From Candidatus Omnitrophica bacterium 4484_213 (lineage in GTDB: Bacteria > Omnitrophota > 4484-213): a stretch of 43,262 nt of DNA. The translations under genes and the position numbers were made by a program. The DNA is taken from the NCBI GenBank assembly GCA_002085025.1, contig MZGK01000021.1:1-43262 (forward strand), read 5' to 3'. Positions 5,495 through 42,560 of this stretch are shown piece by piece. The notes under the pieces are model-generated. The model did no database searches. It was not told where the DNA came from and saw nothing but the letters and a program-made list of their open reading frames with translations. How positions within the stretch are numbered: position 1 is the stretch's first letter; each line of letters opens with the position of its first letter.

Positions 5495-5779
5495 TCATTT
5501 CTTATCCTTTGATTTTTCTGTCTTTGAACCGTGTTTTTTAAAGATACGCGTAGGAGCAAACTCACCCAATTTATACCCTACCATATTTTCAGAAACAAAC
5601 ACGGGGATAAAACTCTTTCCATTATGAACAAGAAAGGTATATCCGACAAACTCCGGAATTATTGTTGAACGACGCGACCAGGTCTTGATCGCCTTTTTTT
5701 CTCTGCTATTTCTTAATCTGTTTATCTTTTCTAATAATCCCCTATCCACATAAGGCCCTTTCTTGATTGATCGTCCCAT
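5495..5779 (-). CDS. rpsS: 30S ribosomal protein S19
   Basis: [31 protein letters not shown]. Confidence 0.98.
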
Positions 5780-35030: not shown

Positions 35031-35843
35031 TTAAAAGATTTCCAAATCTGAAGTTTTAACCCAGCCTGTTTTTTTATCGGAACGTTCAATTTTGCACCAG
35101 GAGTCTTTGAGTGAGACTACATAAATTTTCATACCTTCATAGAGAGTAAAATGTGTTGTCGCTGTATCAAACGGTTCAAATTTAGCATCTGTCTTTTCTG
35201 CAATTATTACCGCTTCTTTACCCGCTACTGAGGCTTTCTCAAATAGTGCAATAGAAAATAGGACAAAAATAATAATCAAAATCGCCAATGTGCCAGCCCT
35301 GTATTTTCTGATAGAGGGAATATACATAGTCAGCGAGATAACCAAGAGAATCATTGTAAATATTACGGCTAAAGAAAAAGCCAATCCATCAATGGTAAAC
35401 AAAGAAAATACCCGAGCAAAGGCGATTCTATACCCTTGGGTTTTGGTTTCAATAACACCCCCTTTTATCAATGACCTTGCGTATTCATAGTTCGATTTTA
35501 AATCACTGTCTCTGGGGATGAGCCGCTTTGCTTTTTCATAATTGAGGATTGCTTTACCAAGCTTACCCTTCTTAAAATAAGAATTTGCCAAATTATAATA
35601 AAGATTGCCACTTTCAAACCCTGAATTTAATACTTCTTCATATGCCTTTATTGCCTTATCATATTTTTCTTCGGAATAGTAGGTGTTTGCGCGGTAGAAG
35701 TTGCTCTGAACATCTGCATAAAGCACAGGGCAAAGAGCAGAAAACACAAAGTAGAATAGCATGGTACACAAAACAGAGCGCATTAAAGTGCTTAAAGTTT
35801 CTAAGTGCCTAAAGTGCCTAAAATTCTTACCTTCCATTTGCAA
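35031..35843 (-). CDS. batE: BatE-like TPR/SH3 membrane protein (start uncertain, alternative ATG 35783)
   Basis: LYYNLANSYFK..LGKAILNYEKA, two TM helices, C-terminal LYEG..W..GWV SH3-like domain; operon position. Confidence 0.8.
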   Translation of the reverse strand: MQMEGKNFRHFRHLETLSTLMRSVLCTMLFYFVFSALCPVLYADVQSNFYRANTYYSEEKYDKAIKAYEEVLNSGFESGNLYYNLANSYFKKGKLGKAILNYEKAKRLIPRDSDLKSNYEYARSLIKGGVIETKTQGYRIAFARVFSLFTIDGLAFSLAVIFTMILLVISLTMYIPSIRKYRAGTLAILIIIFVLFSIALFEKASVAGKEAVIIAEKTDAKFEPFDTATTHFTLYEGMKIYVVSLKDSWCKIERSDKKTGWVKTSDLEIF

Positions 35844-35952
35844 CTCCTAACTTCCCGTTTAAAGTGCCTGAAGTTTCTAAGTGCCTAAAGTGCCTAAAAT
35901 TAACTTTAGGCACTTTACAATTTTAGCTCACTTTAGGCACTTTCTAGACTTT
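35785..35952. repeat. 9-mer AAAGTGCCT inverted array at the batD/batE junction
   Basis: Tandem AAGTGCCTA units versus TTTAGGCACTT units. Confidence 0.85.
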
Positions 35953-37842
35953 CTTCCTCTCCAGATAATCAATGACCTTACGCATATCATTAAAGACAAT
36001 CTCTGCTTTAGATTTGTCAAACTCTCCTACAGCCTCTGCCCTCTGCCCTATGCCCTTTGCCTCTCCTAAGGGCGCATAGCGGGCCATATCGCAAGCGCTA
36101 AGGACACCAGTTAATTTATCTAAAATTTCACCATCTATATTTTTAGTCTCTAATATTTTCTTAACTGCATCAATAGTTACGGCACCTGCAGGCAGGTGAA
36201 GCTTATCCGCCAGATATCCTATTAAGGTCTTATGGACGCAATCGAAAAACTCTCCGCTTTTTCCCTGCTCTAAAAATCTTCGTGCCCTTGTAATTCCTTG
36301 TCGAGCTTTCACCGGTGCCTGCAGACGTCTGGCATATCGTTCATCGCTCTTAAGCTTCTCTTGATGTTTACGAAAAGTTACCAGAGCACTAAAAACAATC
36401 AATATAAGTAAGTGATAAAACCAAAAACCTGCTCTCTGATAAGGATACTGGTCTATTCGTTTCAATCTTCCCGGCGATTCCTTAATATAAACAATATCTC
36501 TACCTAAAAGTTCCTCCTTGGCTGCCTTTACAACAGCTTGGGGGATTTCCACAATTTTTAATTCACCGCCTTCTGGTTTGCTTACCGAGATTGGAAAAGG
36601 CCCCTCTACAAGTGAACAGTACTTTCCCGTGTGAGGATTAAAGAAATTGAAGGTTATTTTAGGAATTTCTTTTACCTTCTCTGATTGGGGAATAAGTACC
36701 TGCTCAAAAACCTTAGCGCCTTGACCTTGTTTTGCCTGCGGCTGGTAAACCTTAAATCCTTCTTTTGAATTTAGAACAGGGCTGGATACGGTATCAAAAT
36801 TCCCTGTTCCAGTTATAGTCATTGTTACTGTAATTGGGTCGCCGGCCTTTACTTCTTTGGGTGAAACCTCGGCTTTAAATTGGAAATTACCAATCGCTCC
36901 CTTAAAATTAGCCGGTTTGCCTTCACTGGGTAATGGTCGGACGCTAATCTTCAAAGGTGATGATGTAACCTGAAATGGATAGGCTTCGTAGCGCCCAAAA
37001 AAGTCGTTAAATATATCCTCGTCAAAAAATCGGCCAAAGAAATCATTATCAAATCCAAAGAAATCATTATCAAATGGTGTGCGTCTGCGTCTTTGCCGCT
37101 TATGAACTATAAGATTGCAATCTACTTTAGCCGGGCCTAAGAGAAATTGGCCAGGTTTCACCGCAAACATATTAGTATTAAATTCAATAACATCATAAAC
37201 AATGCCGCCAATAGTCTGACGGTACTGTTTAGGCTCTCCAAATTCTTTTATGGAAAAACCTTCGTGCTCAAATTTCGGATATTGAATGTCCCTCACTCCC
37301 AGACGGTTTATATATAGTTTTATAAATAAGGGGATAGACTCATTCACATAAGGTTGCAATTTCCCGGCTTTAACGGTAAGAAAAATCCTATCCTTTAACT
37401 CTTCTTCTGAGATTGTTCCCTGAGCAGTGCTGGGTCTTTGAGTTTGTCGTGGCGGTGGTGACGGAGCGGATACAACCTCAACGGTTAAAGCCTGAGAAGT
37501 AAAGGTTTCTCCATTAATAACCACCGAAAAAGGTCCAATCTCAAATTTTCCTGTTTTTAATGGTATTAATGTATAAATATGGGTTATGGAAGAAGAAACC
37601 CGACCATTGACAACAGATATCCTTGTTGAAGGACCAAGATAGCGCACCTGAAAGCCATCAATCCCACCAATATCTGGCGCAGATACATTCTGCGTCCCAT
37701 AAAATGATAAGTTAAGTTGCAGGTTCTCTCCTAAAGAAACAGTTTTCCGATCTACAGTTGCTTCAAACCGTATATCAGAAGCAAGAACCACTCCTTCTAA
37801 AACCACCAACAATAATAAAACAATAATAACTTTTTTCAGCAT
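35944..37842 (-). CDS. batD: BatD family protein
   Basis: Signal peptide, repeated Ig-like BatD domains, F.GAIG.F, FFNP.TG.Y, C-terminal TM helix and CD.ARYAP. Confidence 0.85.
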   Translation of the reverse strand: MLKKVIIVLLLLVVLEGVVLASDIRFEATVDRKTVSLGENLQLNLSFYGTQNVSAPDIGGIDGFQVRYLGPSTRISVVNGRVSSSITHIYTLIPLKTGKFEIGPFSVVINGETFTSQALTVEVVSAPSPPPRQTQRPSTAQGTISEEELKDRIFLTVKAGKLQPYVNESIPLFIKLYINRLGVRDIQYPKFEHEGFSIKEFGEPKQYRQTIGGIVYDVIEFNTNMFAVKPGQFLLGPAKVDCNLIVHKRQRRRRTPFDNDFFGFDNDFFGRFFDEDIFNDFFGRYEAYPFQVTSSPLKISVRPLPSEGKPANFKGAIGNFQFKAEVSPKEVKAGDPITVTMTITGTGNFDTVSSPVLNSKEGFKVYQPQAKQGQGAKVFEQVLIPQSEKVKEIPKITFNFFNPHTGKYCSLVEGPFPISVSKPEGGELKIVEIPQAVVKAAKEELLGRDIVYIKESPGRLKRIDQYPYQRAGFWFYHLLILIVFSALVTFRKHQEKLKSDERYARRLQAPVKARQGITRARRFLEQGKSGEFFDCVHKTLIGYLADKLHLPAGAVTIDAVKKILETKNIDGEILDKLTGVLSACDMARYAPLGEAKGIGQRAEAVGEFDKSKAEIVFNDMRKVIDYLERKKV

Positions 37843-37910
37843 CTCTTTAATGAACTGAAAAATAACTTTAGGCATTTTAGGTGCTTAGAAACTTTAGACA
37901 TTTCTCAAAA

Positions 37911-38732
37911 CTACCAATCCTTGAGTACAGGCGGATAATATCTCCCTCTTGCTTTTCTCTGCATATTACCGACTGACTGGTCCTGCTGGTCATAACGCTC
38001 AAGTAACATCCTTGCTTCCTCTTCCGACATCTCCCCTTCTGCTTCTTGTTCCGCTTCATAGCCTTTAGCTTGTTCTATATCCTGTTCTTTTTGTTTATCT
38101 TCTTTTTCTTCGTCTTTCCGGGCAGCTTCCCGCTGTTTATGTTCATCTTTTTTTTCTTCTCCCTCTGCCTTTTGCCCTCTACCCTCTACCTGTTTCTCTT
38201 TATCCTCCGAGCCCTTAGCCGAGGAGGATTGTCGCTTTAACTTATCTAAAAGAATTTTAAGCTCTCTTTCTACAAATTCATGGTTGTATTTGGCATTGAT
38301 ATCCTTCTCATTTAATTCTATTGCCCGTTTATAGTAATCAAGCGCTTCGCGATACAAACCAACAGCTGAGGATAGGTCCGTATTTTTTTTAAGCGTGCCT
38401 AAACGATATTTGCTGTTTCCTATATTGTAAGCCGCCTTTTCTTCAATCTTGGGATTGTCGCTAAGCAATGCTTTGTTGAAAGCCTTGATGGCTTTTTCAT
38501 AATCTCCTTTCTGGTATAATGCTGCACCCATGTTAAAGTTAACTACATCAGAGTCAGGCATATCAACCTTAGCCTCATTGTAATATTTTAAAGCCTCATC
38601 AAACTTGCCCTGACGGTAAAAGCTATTTCCCTCTTTTACGCTGGCAGGGGCAGATGCAGCAAAACAAAGAGACTGCTTGAAAAATATAATGGTAACCGCT
38701 AAACAAGATATTACAAAGATTTTCCTGGACAT
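37911..38732 (-). CDS. batC: BatC-like TPR protein
   Basis: TPRs, AKYN.E, low-complexity Q/E/K linker, MSEEEARMLL, terminal KDW. Confidence 0.8.
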   Translation of the reverse strand: MSRKIFVISCLAVTIIFFKQSLCFAASAPASVKEGNSFYRQGKFDEALKYYNEAKVDMPDSDVVNFNMGAALYQKGDYEKAIKAFNKALLSDNPKIEEKAAYNIGNSKYRLGTLKKNTDLSSAVGLYREALDYYKRAIELNEKDINAKYNHEFVERELKILLDKLKRQSSSAKGSEDKEKQVEGRGQKAEGEEKKDEHKQREAARKDEEKEDKQKEQDIEQAKGYEAEQEAEGEMSEEEARMLLERYDQQDQSVGNMQRKARGRYYPPVLKDW

Positions 38733-38743
38733 TTGACTACAGT

Positions 38744-38815
38744 AAAGTGACTAAAGTTTCTAAATGCCTAAAGTGAGCTAAAATTAACTTTAGGCACTTT
38801 CTAACTTTAGGCATT
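38744..38815. repeat. 9-mer inverted array at the batB/batC junction (empty)
   Basis: AAAGTGACTAAAGTTTCTAAATGCCTAAAG versus CTTTAGGCACTTTCTAACTTTAGGCATT. Confidence 0.85.
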
Positions 38816-39811
38816 TTTCCTCCTTTCACTTATAAAAAGCTCTCCTAAAAGTAAAAGAAATGCTAAGACTAAGGGAATCTGAAAGCGTTCTTCAAATTGC
38901 CTGGCTAATTTACTCTCCAGTTCTCGCTTTTCCATTTTGGAAAGTTTCTCTTTATAAATCAAGTCTAAGCCGAACTCAGTAGCCCCGGAACGGACATAAC
39001 TGCCACCGGTAGCAAGGGCTATCTTCTGTAAGGTAGTTTCATCTAATCTGGATTTAACCACATTACCCTGACGGTCTTTTAAAAATGTCTTGTTACCTTT
39101 CTCATCTGTAAGGGTAATTAATTCACCTTGAGGTGTGCCGATACCGATACAAAATATTTTCACTCCTTCTTTTTTTGCCTCCTCAGCGGCTTTTTCAGGA
39201 TTACTCTCATGGTCTTCACCATCACTAATAAGAATTAGCACCTTGTATTTTTTTAATCCCCCTTCATAACTTCTCATCGCCTCTTTTATTGCTTTTGAGA
39301 TTGAGGTGCCGCCGCGGGGAATTATATTGACATTCAAACTATTCACTGAAAGAAGAAATCCGCCGTAATCTACAGTTAAAGGACATTGCAAAAACGCCTC
39401 ACCGGTAAAGGCAATGAGCCCCACACGATCGCCTTTTAAGTGTCGGGTGAAATCTTTTAGAGCCAGTTTTGTCCGTTCTAATCTATTGGGTTTGACATCG
39501 GTGGCTAACATACTTTTGGAGGTATCTACGGCGATAATAATATCCAGACCTTTGCGCTTTATCTCCTGCCAGTGGAATCCCCACTGTGGACGCAAAAAGG
39601 AAAGAACGATCAAAAAAACTGCCAAGATCATTAAAATGATTTTAACTCTTTGGTTTCTCTTATCTAACGAAGAGGTTAAATCTGCAATAAGGTTCTTCTT
39701 CGCAAATCGCTCCATTGTGGCTTTTCTTTTTTTAGATGACCAAAGATAAAATCCGGCAAGCGCTACTATAATCCACAATAGATGTAATGCTCCTAAATTA
39801 GCAAATCTCAT
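38807..39811 (-). CDS. batB: BatB vWA-domain protein
   Basis: RPQWG, MIDAS DTSKSM, PNRLE, PLTVD, SDGEDH. Confidence 0.88.
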   Translation of the reverse strand: MRFANLGALHLLWIIVALAGFYLWSSKKRKATMERFAKKNLIADLTSSLDKRNQRVKIILMILAVFLIVLSFLRPQWGFHWQEIKRKGLDIIIAVDTSKSMLATDVKPNRLERTKLALKDFTRHLKGDRVGLIAFTGEAFLQCPLTVDYGGFLLSVNSLNVNIIPRGGTSISKAIKEAMRSYEGGLKKYKVLILISDGEDHESNPEKAAEEAKKEGVKIFCIGIGTPQGELITLTDEKGNKTFLKDRQGNVVKSRLDETTLQKIALATGGSYVRSGATEFGLDLIYKEKLSKMEKRELESKLARQFEERFQIPLVLAFLLLLGELFISERRKNA

Positions 39812-39820
39812 AATAAGTGA

Positions 39821-40648
39821 CTAAAGTTGTAAAGTGTCTAAAGTGAACGCCTCAGTTTTGCTGGCAATATCTATTAAGGTATCTTCATCAATATCTATCT
39901 TTATTGATTGGTAAACCTTATTACCAAAGAAATCTCTTGCCGGATAAGGAGCCAAGCCTCTGGTGCCCGCGCCAATAGTATACACCTTTATCTCTAAAGA
40001 CCGGGCGGCCTCGGCGGCTAAAGAGGGTGAAATATCACCGGCATTGTTCCTTCCATCGGTTAATAAAATAACTACTTTACTCTTGGCTTTTGTATCTTTA
40101 AGCCGATTTAGACTGGAGGCCAGCCCCAAACCTATGGCTGTACCATCTTCAATCATTCCTATCTTGACACGCTCAAGGTTTTGAAGCAACCAGTTATAAT
40201 CAAGAGTCAGCGGACTTACAGTATATGCTTGCGCTGCAAACGCTACGAGTCCTATGCGGTCATTTTCTCTACCTTGGATGAATTTTTGGACAACATCTTT
40301 TACCGCATCCAGACGGTTGACTCTCTTACCTCTCAATGTAAAGTCCTCAGCCAGCATACTTGTAGAAACATCTAAGGCTAAAACAATATCAATACCTTCG
40401 GTTTCAATCTTAGTTTCCTCCAGGGGTTCTTGAGGTCTAGATAAAGCCACTGCTATCAGGCAAAGGGCTATAATCCGGAGCAAGTATACATTCTTGGCGA
40501 GAACCACTCTCAGGGATGGCTTCACTCGCTTAAGAAGCTTATCTGTAGAAAAAGTGAGGCTTGCCCTGATTTTTCTCTTCCGTAAATAGTATGCTCCTGC
40601 TAAAACGAGAGGAATCAATAATAAAAATAAAGGATTCTGAAAAGTCAT
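39821..40648 (-). CDS. batA: BatA vWA-domain protein, C-terminally truncated
   Basis: ALSRPQ, GIDI, DVSTSM, DGTAIG, LLTDGRNN; runs into repeat after IASKTEA with no C-terminal TM segment. Confidence 0.85.
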   Translation of the reverse strand: MTFQNPLFLLLIPLVLAGAYYLRKRKIRASLTFSTDKLLKRVKPSLRVVLAKNVYLLRIIALCLIAVALSRPQEPLEETKIETEGIDIVLALDVSTSMLAEDFTLRGKRVNRLDAVKDVVQKFIQGRENDRIGLVAFAAQAYTVSPLTLDYNWLLQNLERVKIGMIEDGTAIGLGLASSLNRLKDTKAKSKVVILLTDGRNNAGDISPSLAAEAARSLEIKVYTIGAGTRGLAPYPARDFFGNKVYQSIKIDIDEDTLIDIASKTEAFTLDTLQL

Positions 40649-40693
40649 GATAAAAGTGCCAAAAGTTTTAAGTGCCTAAAATGCCTAAAGTTA

Positions 40694-40951
40694 TTATTTT
40701 CTCTTTCGAGCAATAGAAGTAAATAGCGCTAGAAGTTCGCTACTTTTATTCTCAAAATCAGCCAAACTAACAGATCTATTAGCCTCCCGGTAATTTGCTC
40801 CTATGGAAGTCTCGCTTTTTATTACTTGGTAACGTATGATATTACTAACTGCGTTATTAGGTAATTGAAATGCAATATTTATAATCATCAACGCAAAATC
40901 TTTGGTCCGCTTTTCTAATTTTCTAGCAAATTCTCTATTACTCTTATCCAT
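40694..40951 (-). CDS. Four-helix-bundle (23S-IVS protein/bAvd-like) protein, apparently lacking helix 3
   Basis: LEKRTKDFA, Q..KSETSIGANYREA, S.ADF.NK, ELLALFTSI; usual KEA.ET.YWL segment absent. Confidence 0.8.
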   Translation of the reverse strand: MDKSNREFARKLEKRTKDFALMIINIAFQLPNNAVSNIIRYQVIKSETSIGANYREANRSVSLADFENKSSELLALFTSIARKRK

Positions 40952-40969
40952 TTTAGGCACTTTGAAACT

Positions 40970-41911
40970 TTAACTTACTTTAGGCATTTCTTCTTTTGTC
41001 TGGTCAATCAGTTTCTTTGCTGATTCAAAGCTTAAACCCACCTCTTTTTCGGGAGGTTTATACCTGGCGAATTTAACAAGGTCGCAATGGGATAAGAAAT
41101 CACGCAAAAGACTTTTGTGTTCATAAGAAAGTGCCTTGTTGTCTTTCACGCTATTTAAAAATTCTTCTGTAGTCATCTCCGGTGCGCGTAAATTGAAGCG
41201 ATTTTCTAAGTAGTGCCTTACAATATCAGACAATTCAATATAATAAAGTTTCAACTCTCCGCGCCTTAGATATTCCTTTTGCGTAAGTGCCTCAAGTGCC
41301 TCGTAGGCAATTTCATGGGCAGGTCGAGGAGGAAGAACAGTTTGAGTTTTTTTGCGTTTAAATAAAAAGAAGGCAGTACCTGCCCCTAAGGCTATTAGCC
41401 CAAGAATTCCCCATAGATACCAGGGAATCTTAACAGGAAAGCCAATTGGTCCAGCAATTTCTCGTATATCGCGTTTATCTTCGGCGTTCTCTAAGATACT
41501 TTCTACTTCTACAGTAATCTCATCAGTGGAAACCTCTTGCCATTCTTTTTGGCTTTTCTTCCTATATTTAACTCTGGCCTCAGGAATTGAATATTTACCA
41601 CTTGTATATGTATCAAGCACATACCACTGCCGATATGTTTTGGTCCTAAACCATCCCTTTCGTGATGTGCCAAAATCTTTAATCGCAAAACCACCCAGGT
41701 TTTGGCCAAATTCAGGGAACTTTATCTCAATATCCTTATCTGCTTTAACGGTGATGCTATAGGTTATCTTATCACCAATGGTTGCTTTATCTTTATCCAC
41801 CGAGGCAGAAACCTCCAGAGGTAGCTTATCAATGGAACCTTGCTCTGATGCAAAGCATATAGCCGGCGTCAAAATCAATATTAATAGCATAGCGCATAGA
41901 GCATAGCGCAT
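40970..41911 (-). CDS. Bat-operon-associated membrane protein
   Basis: Signal peptide from ATG 41911, IGD.I, DIREI, TM helix, PAHEIA, RHYLE.RF...APEMTTEEF, DLVKFA. Confidence 0.8.
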   Translation of the reverse strand: MRYALCAMLLILILTPAICFASEQGSIDKLPLEVSASVDKDKATIGDKITYSITVKADKDIEIKFPEFGQNLGGFAIKDFGTSRKGWFRTKTYRQWYVLDTYTSGKYSIPEARVKYRKKSQKEWQEVSTDEITVEVESILENAEDKRDIREIAGPIGFPVKIPWYLWGILGLIALGAGTAFFLFKRKKTQTVLPPRPAHEIAYEALEALTQKEYLRRGELKLYYIELSDIVRHYLENRFNLRAPEMTTEEFLNSVKDNKALSYEHKSLLRDFLSHCDLVKFARYKPPEKEVGLSFESAKKLIDQTKEEMPKVS

Positions 41912-42004
41912 AGGATTAAAGCATCTTCTTATTTCTGCCATAAGAGAATAGCTACTTAATTGACATTTTTTGGCTTTCATCATCATTTTAAGGATAAAAG
42001 AAGT

Positions 42005-42086
42005 TAGCGAAAATAATTCTGGCAAGACCGCATAACTCATAAACCATTTGGTCAATCTGGTGCTCGTATTCTTTGACCTTGGCTTG
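42005..42086 (-). pseudogene. C-terminal remnant of a type IIG-like restriction-modification enzyme
   Basis: QAKVKEYEHQIDQMVYELCGL resembles the ID..VY.LYGL terminal motif. Confidence 0.5.
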
Positions 42087-42198
42087 CCTGCCTGCCGAAG
42101 CCTCGGCGTAGGCAAGTTTTTGCGACTTTTCAAGGCAGTCTTCAGACCTAACGGAGTAAAACAAAGAAATAAATGTTTAGTTCTTTTAACTTCCATCA

Positions 42199-42560
42199 TC
42201 AAGTCATATTTTTCTCAAAACTTTCAAAATCCTTAACAGGAGCAACAAATTTTGAATCTCTTATAAGTTCAAACCTCTTTTTAGCACTTCCTATCTTAAT
42301 TTTTTCATCGGATTTCAATTCATAAATATTATTAGTTCCTTTGGTTTCAACTACAAAGTAAATTTTTCCTTCAATATGCCCATCCTGAGCTCTTTCTATT
42401 ACTATTGCTCAATCAGGCGTGTAATTGCCAGCAGGTGTTTCTATTTTGTACTCATTGGGTAGTTTTATGAACAATTTTATGCGGGAGTCTTTATCAAGTG
42501 TCTTAGCAAACTCTTCTTCTGTATTTGATTCTTTAATTATCCTATCATAAACTGAAACCG
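42199..42560 (-). pseudogene. Type III restriction (Res) nuclease C-terminal fragment
   Basis: S.TEEEFA..LD...IKLFIKLP..YKIETPAGNYTPD*AIV...YFVVETKG...EKIKI; in-frame TGA at the conserved Trp. Confidence 0.8.

Follow-up and report, generated by a model that had tools for sequence, protein, structure and literature searches.

A short open reading frame (ORF) of the four-helix-bundle (4HB) family, set between inverted arrays of short tandem repeats in a Bat operon of Candidatus Omnitrophica bacterium 4484_213, was analyzed together with its relatives in other genomes and metagenomes. The window, meaning the whole stretch of DNA that was analyzed, comprises 43,262 nt of contig MZGK01000021.1 from an assembly (GCA_002085025.1) of 932 kb and 85.8% completeness. 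All genes in the part of the window that surrounds the ORF lie on the minus strand, and the ORF is flanked by inverted arrays of degenerate AAGTGCCTA-type 9-mers at the stop/start junction upstream of batA. We refer to the ORF with its two arms as the cassette. The features of the locus are the following.

40970..42202, minus strand: upstream operon gene with a BatD/DUF11-like domain (weak LB_053-family match)
40952..40995, minus strand: cassette 5′ arm (coding strand), degenerate AAATGCCTAAAGT / AAAGTGCCTAAA units
40694..40951, minus strand: 4HB ORF remnant, 85 aa from its ATG
40649..40693, minus strand: cassette 3′ arm, TAACTTTAGGCATTTTAGGCACTT...TTGGCACTTTTATC, from the 4HB stop to the batA start codon
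39821..40648, minus strand: batA (BatA N-terminal domain plus VWA), its start abutting the cassette 3′ arm
38807-39811, minus strand: batB
37911-38732, minus strand: batC (TPR)
35944-37875, minus strand: batD
35031-35783, minus strand: second TPR gene

Read on the plus strand, units AAGTGCCAA / AAGTTTTAA / GTGCCTAAA / ATGCCTAAA occupy positions 40654-40691, and TTTAGGCACTT...TTTAGGCATTT occupies 40952-40990 on the opposite side of the 4HB ORF. The units are degenerate, number 2-4 per arm, and repeat with a period of 9 rather than the period of 7 that is usual in the 4HB-cassette family. The best inverted arm pairs span 13 nt with 100% complementarity and 28 nt with 79%, so that the bracketing of the ORF by inverted 9-mer arrays, claimed in an earlier note on this DNA, was confirmed from the letters. 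The same note had called the system a non-transposase one, and no transposase was found within or adjoining the cassette. The last codons and stop of the upstream gene (40970-40972) lie inside the 5′ arm, which encodes the C-terminal tail of that BatD-like protein and ends at the 4HB start codon. Promoter-like sites between 40400 and 41200 showed no excess (1 versus 1.7 expected), and no terminator-like site was found in that interval.

In its predicted fold, the 361-nt sense transcript of the cassette has paired arms that enclose the ORF as a loop (minimum free energy −79.6 versus −68.0 ± 5.3, z −2.2), and 3 of 100 shuffles folded as stably. For the isolated arms, the duplex energy was −26.7 versus −17.5 ± 3.6 kcal/mol, a value equaled by 16 of 1000 dinucleotide shuffles. 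The arms therefore pair better than shuffled controls, the outcome that the suggested fold of the 40640-41000 region had called for. The gene-less hairpins at other junctions, described below, gave z values of −3.1 to −6.9, with 0-1 of 300 shuffles as stable. The cassette stem alone is only moderately better than chance, and the strength of the case comes from its relatives.

The window ORF scored 22 bits on PF05635 (cut-off 33.8), covering profile positions 7-61 of 106, and 31.9 bits on TIGR02436 (cut-off 24), covering positions 2-57 of 109. An intact 120-aa allele, P0001, was obtained from metagenome locus L045; it scored 63 bits on PF05635 and 81.9 bits on TIGR02436, above both cut-offs, and matched PDB entry 2RLD with an E value of 6.5e-22. 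The AlphaFold model of P0001 (pLDDT of 95.1) has helices at residues 3-27, 34-58, 63-90, and 96-118, and its structural matches (TM scores of 0.70-0.89) were led by 2RLD and 2GSC (0.75-0.89), followed by Avd chains of diversity-generating retroelements (DGRs; 0.70-0.80). The window ORF is 94% identical to residues 1-69 of P0001 and has an in-frame 105-nt deletion (35 codons) that corresponds to residues 70-104, a stretch made up of the greater part of helix 3 and the first part of helix 4, and that takes out six nearly invariant positions. A contig of run X4 holds the 105 letters missing from the window ORF, at 40743/40744. Because these 35 codons are deleted, the product would be unable to form a four-helix bundle. 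On this alignment the window ORF derives from a 4HB gene by loss of 35 codons and is a broken member of the family; the description of it as a four-helix-bundle gene applies to the intact P0001 allele and fails for the fold of the window copy. The closest non-self match to the cassette ORF in 400 Omnitrophota genomes was only 42-46% identical, and metagenome contigs L045 and L060 were the only close relatives of the cassette found.

To place the cassette among its alternatives, we compared 45 metagenome loci encoding BatA relatives, several of them near-duplicates; the junction was examined in 37 and was readable in 30. Half of the readable junctions (15/30) were tight, at −11 to +6 nt and typically with an ATGA overlap, and a further 5 measured 17-26 nt. 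Gene-less hairpins of other units (36-123 nt) were present at 5 junctions, a 4HB cassette at 4, and an unexplained 282-nt gap at 1. The comparison shows the junction upstream of batA to be normally a tight stop/start overlap and, by alignment, the cassette to be a derived insertion. Two of these loci, L045 and L046, have flanks that are 99.57% identical over 2554 nt and 99.87% identical over 3801 nt, and at the batA junction L045 has an intact 446-nt cassette, whereas L046 has 21 nt. Origin of the empty L046 allele by simple deletion was rejected, its 21-nt junction being no substring of the L045 cassette. In run X4 one contig skips 40648-40989 and another carries the intact ORF, and run X3 contained the empty form of the junction. 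Filled/empty polymorphism, which the earlier note had anticipated, is thus found at the batA junction, both in the L045/L046 pair and in runs X3 and X4.

The junction can also hold a different cassette. Genome G001, a sister species in the same genus, is collinear with the window (gene identities of 81-93%), and both it and locus L068 carry another 4HB gene at the batA junction, with CCAGTGA-type arms and a BLASTP E value of 0.56 to P0001. At every other G001 junction, GCGCATAG-type inverted arrays stand in place of the units of the window. Inverted arrays straddle the batC and batD start codons of G001 (L041; G001:C105, 1465-1630 and 2380-2560), one arm encoding a charged N-terminus and the other part of a hydrophobic signal peptide; batC and batD thus have their initial ~30 codons replaced between the species, whereas the mature parts are 81-93% identical. 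Units of CTCTGCCCTCTGCCCTATGCCC type, matching the unit type at the G001 junctions, are also present in the window at 36030-36060, inside the 3′ end of batD. In each of the two cassette types, the 5′ arm opens with a unit similar to the native junction that an empty allele has (GTGCCTAAAGT and GAGACTAAAGT of L046; GCCAGTT/GACCAGT and GACCAGACCAAGCCAGAG of L049), a resemblance noticed after the fact and carrying no statistics.

Locus L060 comes from a genus-level relative, with a BatA only 69% identical, and at the batA junction it has a 4HB gene of the same type, interrupted by a premature stop and flanked by the same arms. Alignment of L045 and L060 gave the following identities.

Left arm: 88.2%
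4HB ORF: 81.8%
Right arm: 84.8%
Upstream gene: 53.3%
batA: 66.0%
Third codon positions: ORF 65.8%, batA 41.6%

The arms and the ORF are more alike than the genes on either side, and the unit is therefore younger than its surroundings; these alignments show arms and ORF to have been inherited as one unit with a younger history than the flanking genes. Identity of the ORF by codon position was 86.7 / 93.3 / 65.8%, a pattern that points to purifying selection on the 4HB protein. By this codon evidence the ORF is under purifying selection in the relatives, and in the window it is broken.

Arm units were also present at junctions that have no 4HB gene. The motif AARTGCCTAA, allowing at most one mismatch, occurred 26 times in the window versus 10.35 ± 3.32 times in shuffles (0 of 100 shuffles reached 26), and the occurrences were concentrated at the junctions 35786-35942, 37868-37903, 38745-38816, 39815-39841, and 40654-40989. 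With a stricter pattern, the whole assembly had 34 matches, made up of 16 on this contig, 5 on contig C43 at the MoxR>DUF58 and DUF58>PPIase junctions, and 13 singletons. Gene-less copies of the cassette units are accordingly found at four further junctions of the window, listed here, and at two on C43.

39815..39845, minus strand: arm-only remnant at batA>batB, units in a single orientation
38743..38816, minus strand: gene-less hairpin of cassette-type units at batB>batC (fold z −3.1, 1/300 shuffles)
37859..37903, minus strand: arm-only units in one orientation at batC>batD, overlapping the candidate batD start
35783..35943, minus strand: composite gene-less element at batD>TPR gene, with two direct 41-nt unit blocks and an inverted arm

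The composite element folded with z values of −5.7 (whole) and −6.9 (inner), and 0 of 300 shuffles were as stable. Units of the AAGTGCCTAA type were found at 3/3 loci with this cassette and at 0/18 loci without it, and at other junctions only in the genome of the window, the L045 and L060 operons having none elsewhere. Accordingly, what the window has at its gene-less junctions are recent offshoots consisting of arms only, and not sites that a cassette has vacated. From this distribution we conclude that arm-only copies, identified by their units, have spread in this lineage alone to six further Bat and MoxR/DUF58 junctions. The claim that the same arms recur without cargo at other Bat-operon junctions is correct as to their presence, but they are lineage-specific arm-only copies and not empty forms; the true empty sites are the tight stop/start overlaps of the relatives. 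The window batA continues at its 3′ end into arm-type units and is missing ~60 residues at the C terminus that relatives, G001 among them, have. A contig of run X2 has 210 letters at the batA 3′ end (39815-39900) where the window has 42, and the arm-only insertion seems, from this alignment, to have come with a deletion that truncated batA.

Two further observations concern repeats in the window. Contigs of runs X2, X3, and X6 join 40691 to 37859 with identical 10 letters between; these joints reflect either a rearranged relative or contigs linked through a shared repeat, the latter being possible because repeated arms can link contigs. At 5495-5779 a 94-aa ribosomal-protein-like ORF has strongly complementary flanks (score 56), which belong to another repeat family of GGCGGAATT.../...CCGCC-type.

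Matches to PF05635 were obtained in 29/41 related Omnitrophota genomes, and the flanks of 4HB genes were evaluated across the family with a DNA-level local complementarity score between 130-nt flanks (threshold ≥24). This score replaced RNAduplex flank energies (−27 to −100 kcal/mol), which largely reflected composition and failed to distinguish loci from controls. In a first set of 32 4HB loci the median score was 28.5, versus 14 for mismatched flank pairs (n = 480) and 15 for shifted positions (n = 320); 22/32 loci scored ≥24, above the 99th percentile of the positional control, and 19/32 were above that of the mismatched control. In a second set of 28 loci, found with P0001 in 400 genomes, 23/28 scored ≥24, and only 8/28 exceeded the 99th percentile of the mismatched control because related cassettes share arms. 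Combining the sets, 45/60 Omnitrophota 4HB loci scored ≥24 versus 21/700 ordinary ORFs (3%; sampled from 810). A strict periodicity test was passed by 19/60 upstream and 26/60 downstream flanks versus 1/240 control segments, and 41/45 of the periodic flanks have a period of 7, making the period of 9 in the window unusual. Protein similarity correlated with arm similarity (rho 0.235, 0/500 permutations as high). Proteins 62-84% identical, with like arms, occur in unrelated contexts across genomes (ribBA|ribH, cheA|cheB, trpE|trpG, sugar-nucleotide genes, and tRNA spacers), and the neighboring gene is co-oriented upstream at 53/60 loci and downstream at 45/56.

The second cassette of the window's genome lies at atpH|atpA on contig C27, and genome G003 has an 86%-identical copy, which lies 2.4 kb off at a different junction; in the atpH|atpA gap of G003, the ortholog of the C27 site, there is only an 81-nt hairpin, between flanks that are 70-77% identical. 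The C27 cassette (G000:C27:16997-17304) is a pseudogene with at least two frame breaks, and its G003 counterpart in the same ATP-synthase region is more intact. That copy (L137, G003:C50 13050-13614) is followed by a self-complementary CCCAG/CTGGG array. Among the Omnitrophota cassettes, those at L091, L096, L100, L105, and L110 have tRNA genes as immediate neighbors on one or both sides, within the spacers of tRNA transcription units.

Outside the phylum, tblastn searches were run on plasmids, a sample that was mostly cyanobacterial (26/28 records). Six of the 8 cyanobacterial plasmid 4HB loci scored ≥29, including insertions at cas6|cas4 and cmr2|cmr3. The arrays at the Pseudanabaena and Gemmatirosa loci are direct rather than inverted, and the Azospirillum plasmid match lies inside a 23S rRNA gene. 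On plasmids of Anabaena sp. 90, Pseudanabaena galeata, and Picosynechococcus (L122, L124, and L125), annotated four-helix-bundle genes interrupt CRISPR-Cas operons, at cas6|cas4 twice and at cas10/cmr2|cmr3 once; long direct AAAAGCT/AAAAGCC arrays flank the Pseudanabaena copy on either side. The proposed flank enrichment was thus borne out in Omnitrophota (45/60 loci versus 21/700 ordinary ORFs at ≥24) and on cyanobacterial plasmids (6/8 loci at ≥29), and the proposed targeting of operon junctions agrees with the finding of related cassettes at unrelated operon junctions.

We consider it probable that the window contains a decayed copy of a short-repeat-armed 4HB cassette, ~0.45 kb long and transposase-less, that is built like the ORF-bearing intervening sequences (IVSs) of 23S rRNA but sits in a protein-coding operon. 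The cassette is too short for a promoter of its own and is co-oriented with its neighbors, and therefore is probably transcribed with the Bat operon. In the transcript the arms would form a stem of ~35-40 bp, looping the ORF out and bringing the upstream stop and the batA start together. Where two genes are translationally coupled, such juxtaposition could limit the harm that an insertion does at their junction, much as the IVS stem limits it in rRNA. Candidate routes of movement are recombination after DNA uptake, a trans-acting host enzyme, and action of the 4HB protein on its own repeats.

Several results weigh against this reading. Across 1460 aligned arm columns from 45 loci there were 41 sense G·U pairs, 41 A·C pairs, and 131 other mismatches (213 non-Watson-Crick); the equal G·U and A·C counts give no indication that pairing in the sense transcript has been selected for, and the arm complementarity looks like the product of recent DNA-level copying of one arm from the other, to judge from these mismatches, and not of long-term RNA-level selection. 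RNase III was not found in the 85.8%-complete genome of the window (PF14622, PF00636) or in 8 genomes, 92-99% complete, that carry armed cassettes (PF14622), whereas 4/4 other genomes of the family to which the window's genome belongs have it. RNase III was rejected as an obligate partner, since PF14622 was present in 20/29 4HB-positive and 8/12 4HB-negative genomes, showing no association. Neither the arm mismatches nor the RNase III matches lend support to the RNA-processing role that the earlier note had proposed. Neither a target-site duplication nor a fixed end sequence was found at the cassette, the arms differ between cassette clades, and in the L045/L046 comparison ~21 nt was replaced with no target-site duplication. 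No reverse transcriptase (PF00078) was matched in the window's genome. The 4HB loci compared are relatives and hence non-independent, and the ordinary-gene control is from the window's genome alone. Arms were dissimilar in 28/60 protein pairs with an alignment score ≥300, and therefore turn over faster than the gene. Finally, the presence of this cassette at the batA junction of a distant lineage could be due to recombination instead of transposition.

The alternative that survives best, although we judge it unlikely, is that the arms are generic junction hairpins of the target, resembling repetitive extragenic palindromic (REP) sequences and bacterial interspersed mosaic elements (BIMEs), and that 4HB genes merely land or survive in hairpin loops. 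Short-repeat arrays are indeed plentiful in the window's genome, with 253 after filtering (27 per 100 kb), of which 117 have a reverse-complement match no more than 1.5 kb away and 54 have one no more than 100 nt away, and 3/4 of the 4HB cassettes in this genome have arm families with gene-less copies elsewhere. rRNA IVSs, too, are located at helix tips. Against this alternative, the AAGTGCCTAA-type units are found only in loci that have this cassette (3/3 versus 0/18), lineages with only 53-66% identity in the flanking genes have arms that are 85-88% identical, and related cassettes bring like arms into unrelated contexts in different genomes.

A second alternative, which we find improbable, makes the hairpins a host regulatory device of the Bat and MoxR genes, acting in processing, stability, or translational coupling, with the 4HB protein binding nucleic acid as an oligomer, recognizing the tandem units as TRAP does, and so joining the junctions in one regulon. 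Avd homologues bind nucleic acid. The units occur at 7 junctions in two gene clusters with linked functions, located on two contigs, and are nearly absent from the rest of the genome; each arm has 2-5 units and the solved homologue 2RLD has five chains, and the upstream arms are purine-rich on the sense strand (771 versus 476); the homology of 4HB proteins to Avd is stated in the available text of PMC10053308. On the other side stand a window protein that is without 35 residues (six of them nearly invariant), close relatives that have the intact gene and no such units at other junctions, the entirely different units at the corresponding junctions of the sister species, and the tight, hairpin-free junctions of most relatives.

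Very unlikely, in our view, is a DNA-level element of the miniature inverted-repeat transposable element (MITE) type, its arms recognized by a trans enzyme such as a hairpin-binding Y1 (IS200/RAYT-type) transposase and the 4HB gene a passenger: the symmetric G·U and A·C counts would fit a DNA-level origin of complementarity, the arm-only copies resemble non-autonomous derivatives, and a Y1_Tnp protein (27.3 bits) is encoded at C32:337-996 between palindromes of its own, but there is no target-site duplication and no terminal sequence conserved across cassettes, the palindrome flanking the RAYT gene is unrelated to the cassette arms, and a passenger would not be expected to show the purifying selection, or the correspondence with the arms, that the ORF shows. 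The Y1_Tnp gene (G000:C32:337-996; L129) has CTTCCACACCAGGTGTGGAAG-type palindromes on both sides and looks like a REP/RAYT unit; a palindrome similar to the CTTCCACACCAGGTGTGGAAG type fills the batA junction of metagenome locus L063.

REP/BIME elements with RAYT transposases, and MITEs, are hairpin-forming intergenic repeats that are possibly mobilized in trans. The repeat-armed cassette that we favor is like them in its hairpin-forming intergenic repeats, in having gene-less copies at operon junctions, and in a possible mobilization in trans; it differs from REP/BIME elements in that no consensus is shared, each cassette clade having its own unit, and in that 21/34 strict matches lie in two operon regions rather than dispersed. 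Unlike REP/RAYT systems and MITEs, it has a cargo that is no transposase, and it has no target-site duplication. The likeness to DGR Avd (4DWL, 8UB7) is one of fold, the P0001 model reaching TM scores of 0.70-0.80, whereas identity to Avd chains is 11-14%, the neighbors are Bat genes, and the genome has no PF00078 match. An RT-dependent, DGR-like mechanism in the window's genome was rejected on that last ground; no template/variable repeat pair was seen on reading the sequence, a reading made with no dedicated search.

The links of the 4HB family to rRNA IVSs (PMC4990558) and to Avd (PMC10053308) are already published, as the accessible parts of these papers state. In the helix-45 23S IVS of Coxiella burnetii (PMC4990558), RNase III cuts a 28-bp terminal stem, the loop contains an S23p ORF, and tandem heptamers that vary among strains precede the S23p start codon. 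The cassette resembles rRNA IVSs in having a PF05635 ORF, often decaying, in the loop of a terminal inverted-repeat stem, and in belonging with elements long suspected to be selfish or mobile. It differs in that its host site is a stop/start junction of the protein-coding Bat operon and not a 23S or 16S helix, in that its arms are whole 9-mer arrays, and in that arm-only copies have spread to neighboring junctions. RNase III excision, which is shown for the Coxiella IVS (PMC4990558), is for the cassette a putative step.

Intergenic heptamers form the other comparison. The sections available describe tandem heptamers in cyanobacteria and heptameric simple sequence repeats in Xanthomonas and Nostoc (PMC4692102), TAACTGA repeats in Beggiatoaceae (PMC4679880), and Nostoc heptamers near start codons (bioRxiv 10.1101/2022.06.06.494920). 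Judged from those sections, the cassette arms are like these repeats in being short, degenerate tandem units, upstream of starts or between operon genes, that vary among close relatives. They are unlike them in being arranged as inverted pairs around a PF05635 gene, a layout shared by 6/8 cyanobacterial 4HB loci. Genes for S23 or four-helix-bundle proteins had 0 mentions in the available sections of PMC4679880, PMC4692102, and bioRxiv 10.1101/2022.06.06.494920. In the open literature, with subscription journals and closed supplements outside its scope, no description was found that links PF05635 genes outside rRNA to flanking short tandem repeats.

More tentatively, and as a possibility that we do not favor at present, repeat-armed 4HB cassettes may make up a phylum-spanning, self-contained, transposase-less mobile class of which rRNA IVSs would be a special case. 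An oligomeric 4HB protein would act on its own arms, the arms might be seeded from the target junction, and arm-only offspring would be the source of the arrays of heptamers and of short tandemly repeated repetitive (STRR) type in cyanobacteria, Xanthomonas, and other bacteria.

What this locus contributes is the 9-mer variant of the arms, the near-isogenic filled/empty pair, the presence of two BLAST-unrelated cassettes at one junction, the codon-position evidence for a young cassette, the mismatch-symmetry test, and the gene-less copies as lineage-specific offshoots. Six states of the batA junction (bare, short tandem, gene-less hairpin, intact cassette, broken cassette, and different cassette) amount to a natural experiment. 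There is also a hazard for annotation, in that arms are translated into C-terminal tails and signal peptides of neighboring genes and are here associated with a truncated batA. PF05635/TIGR02436 is a very large family of unknown function, for which the rRNA IVS is the sole natural context described outside DGRs. The purpose of the IVS ORF and the origin of intergenic heptamers become linked questions, which could be tested jointly in culturable carriers, Nostoc, Anabaena, and Calothrix among them.

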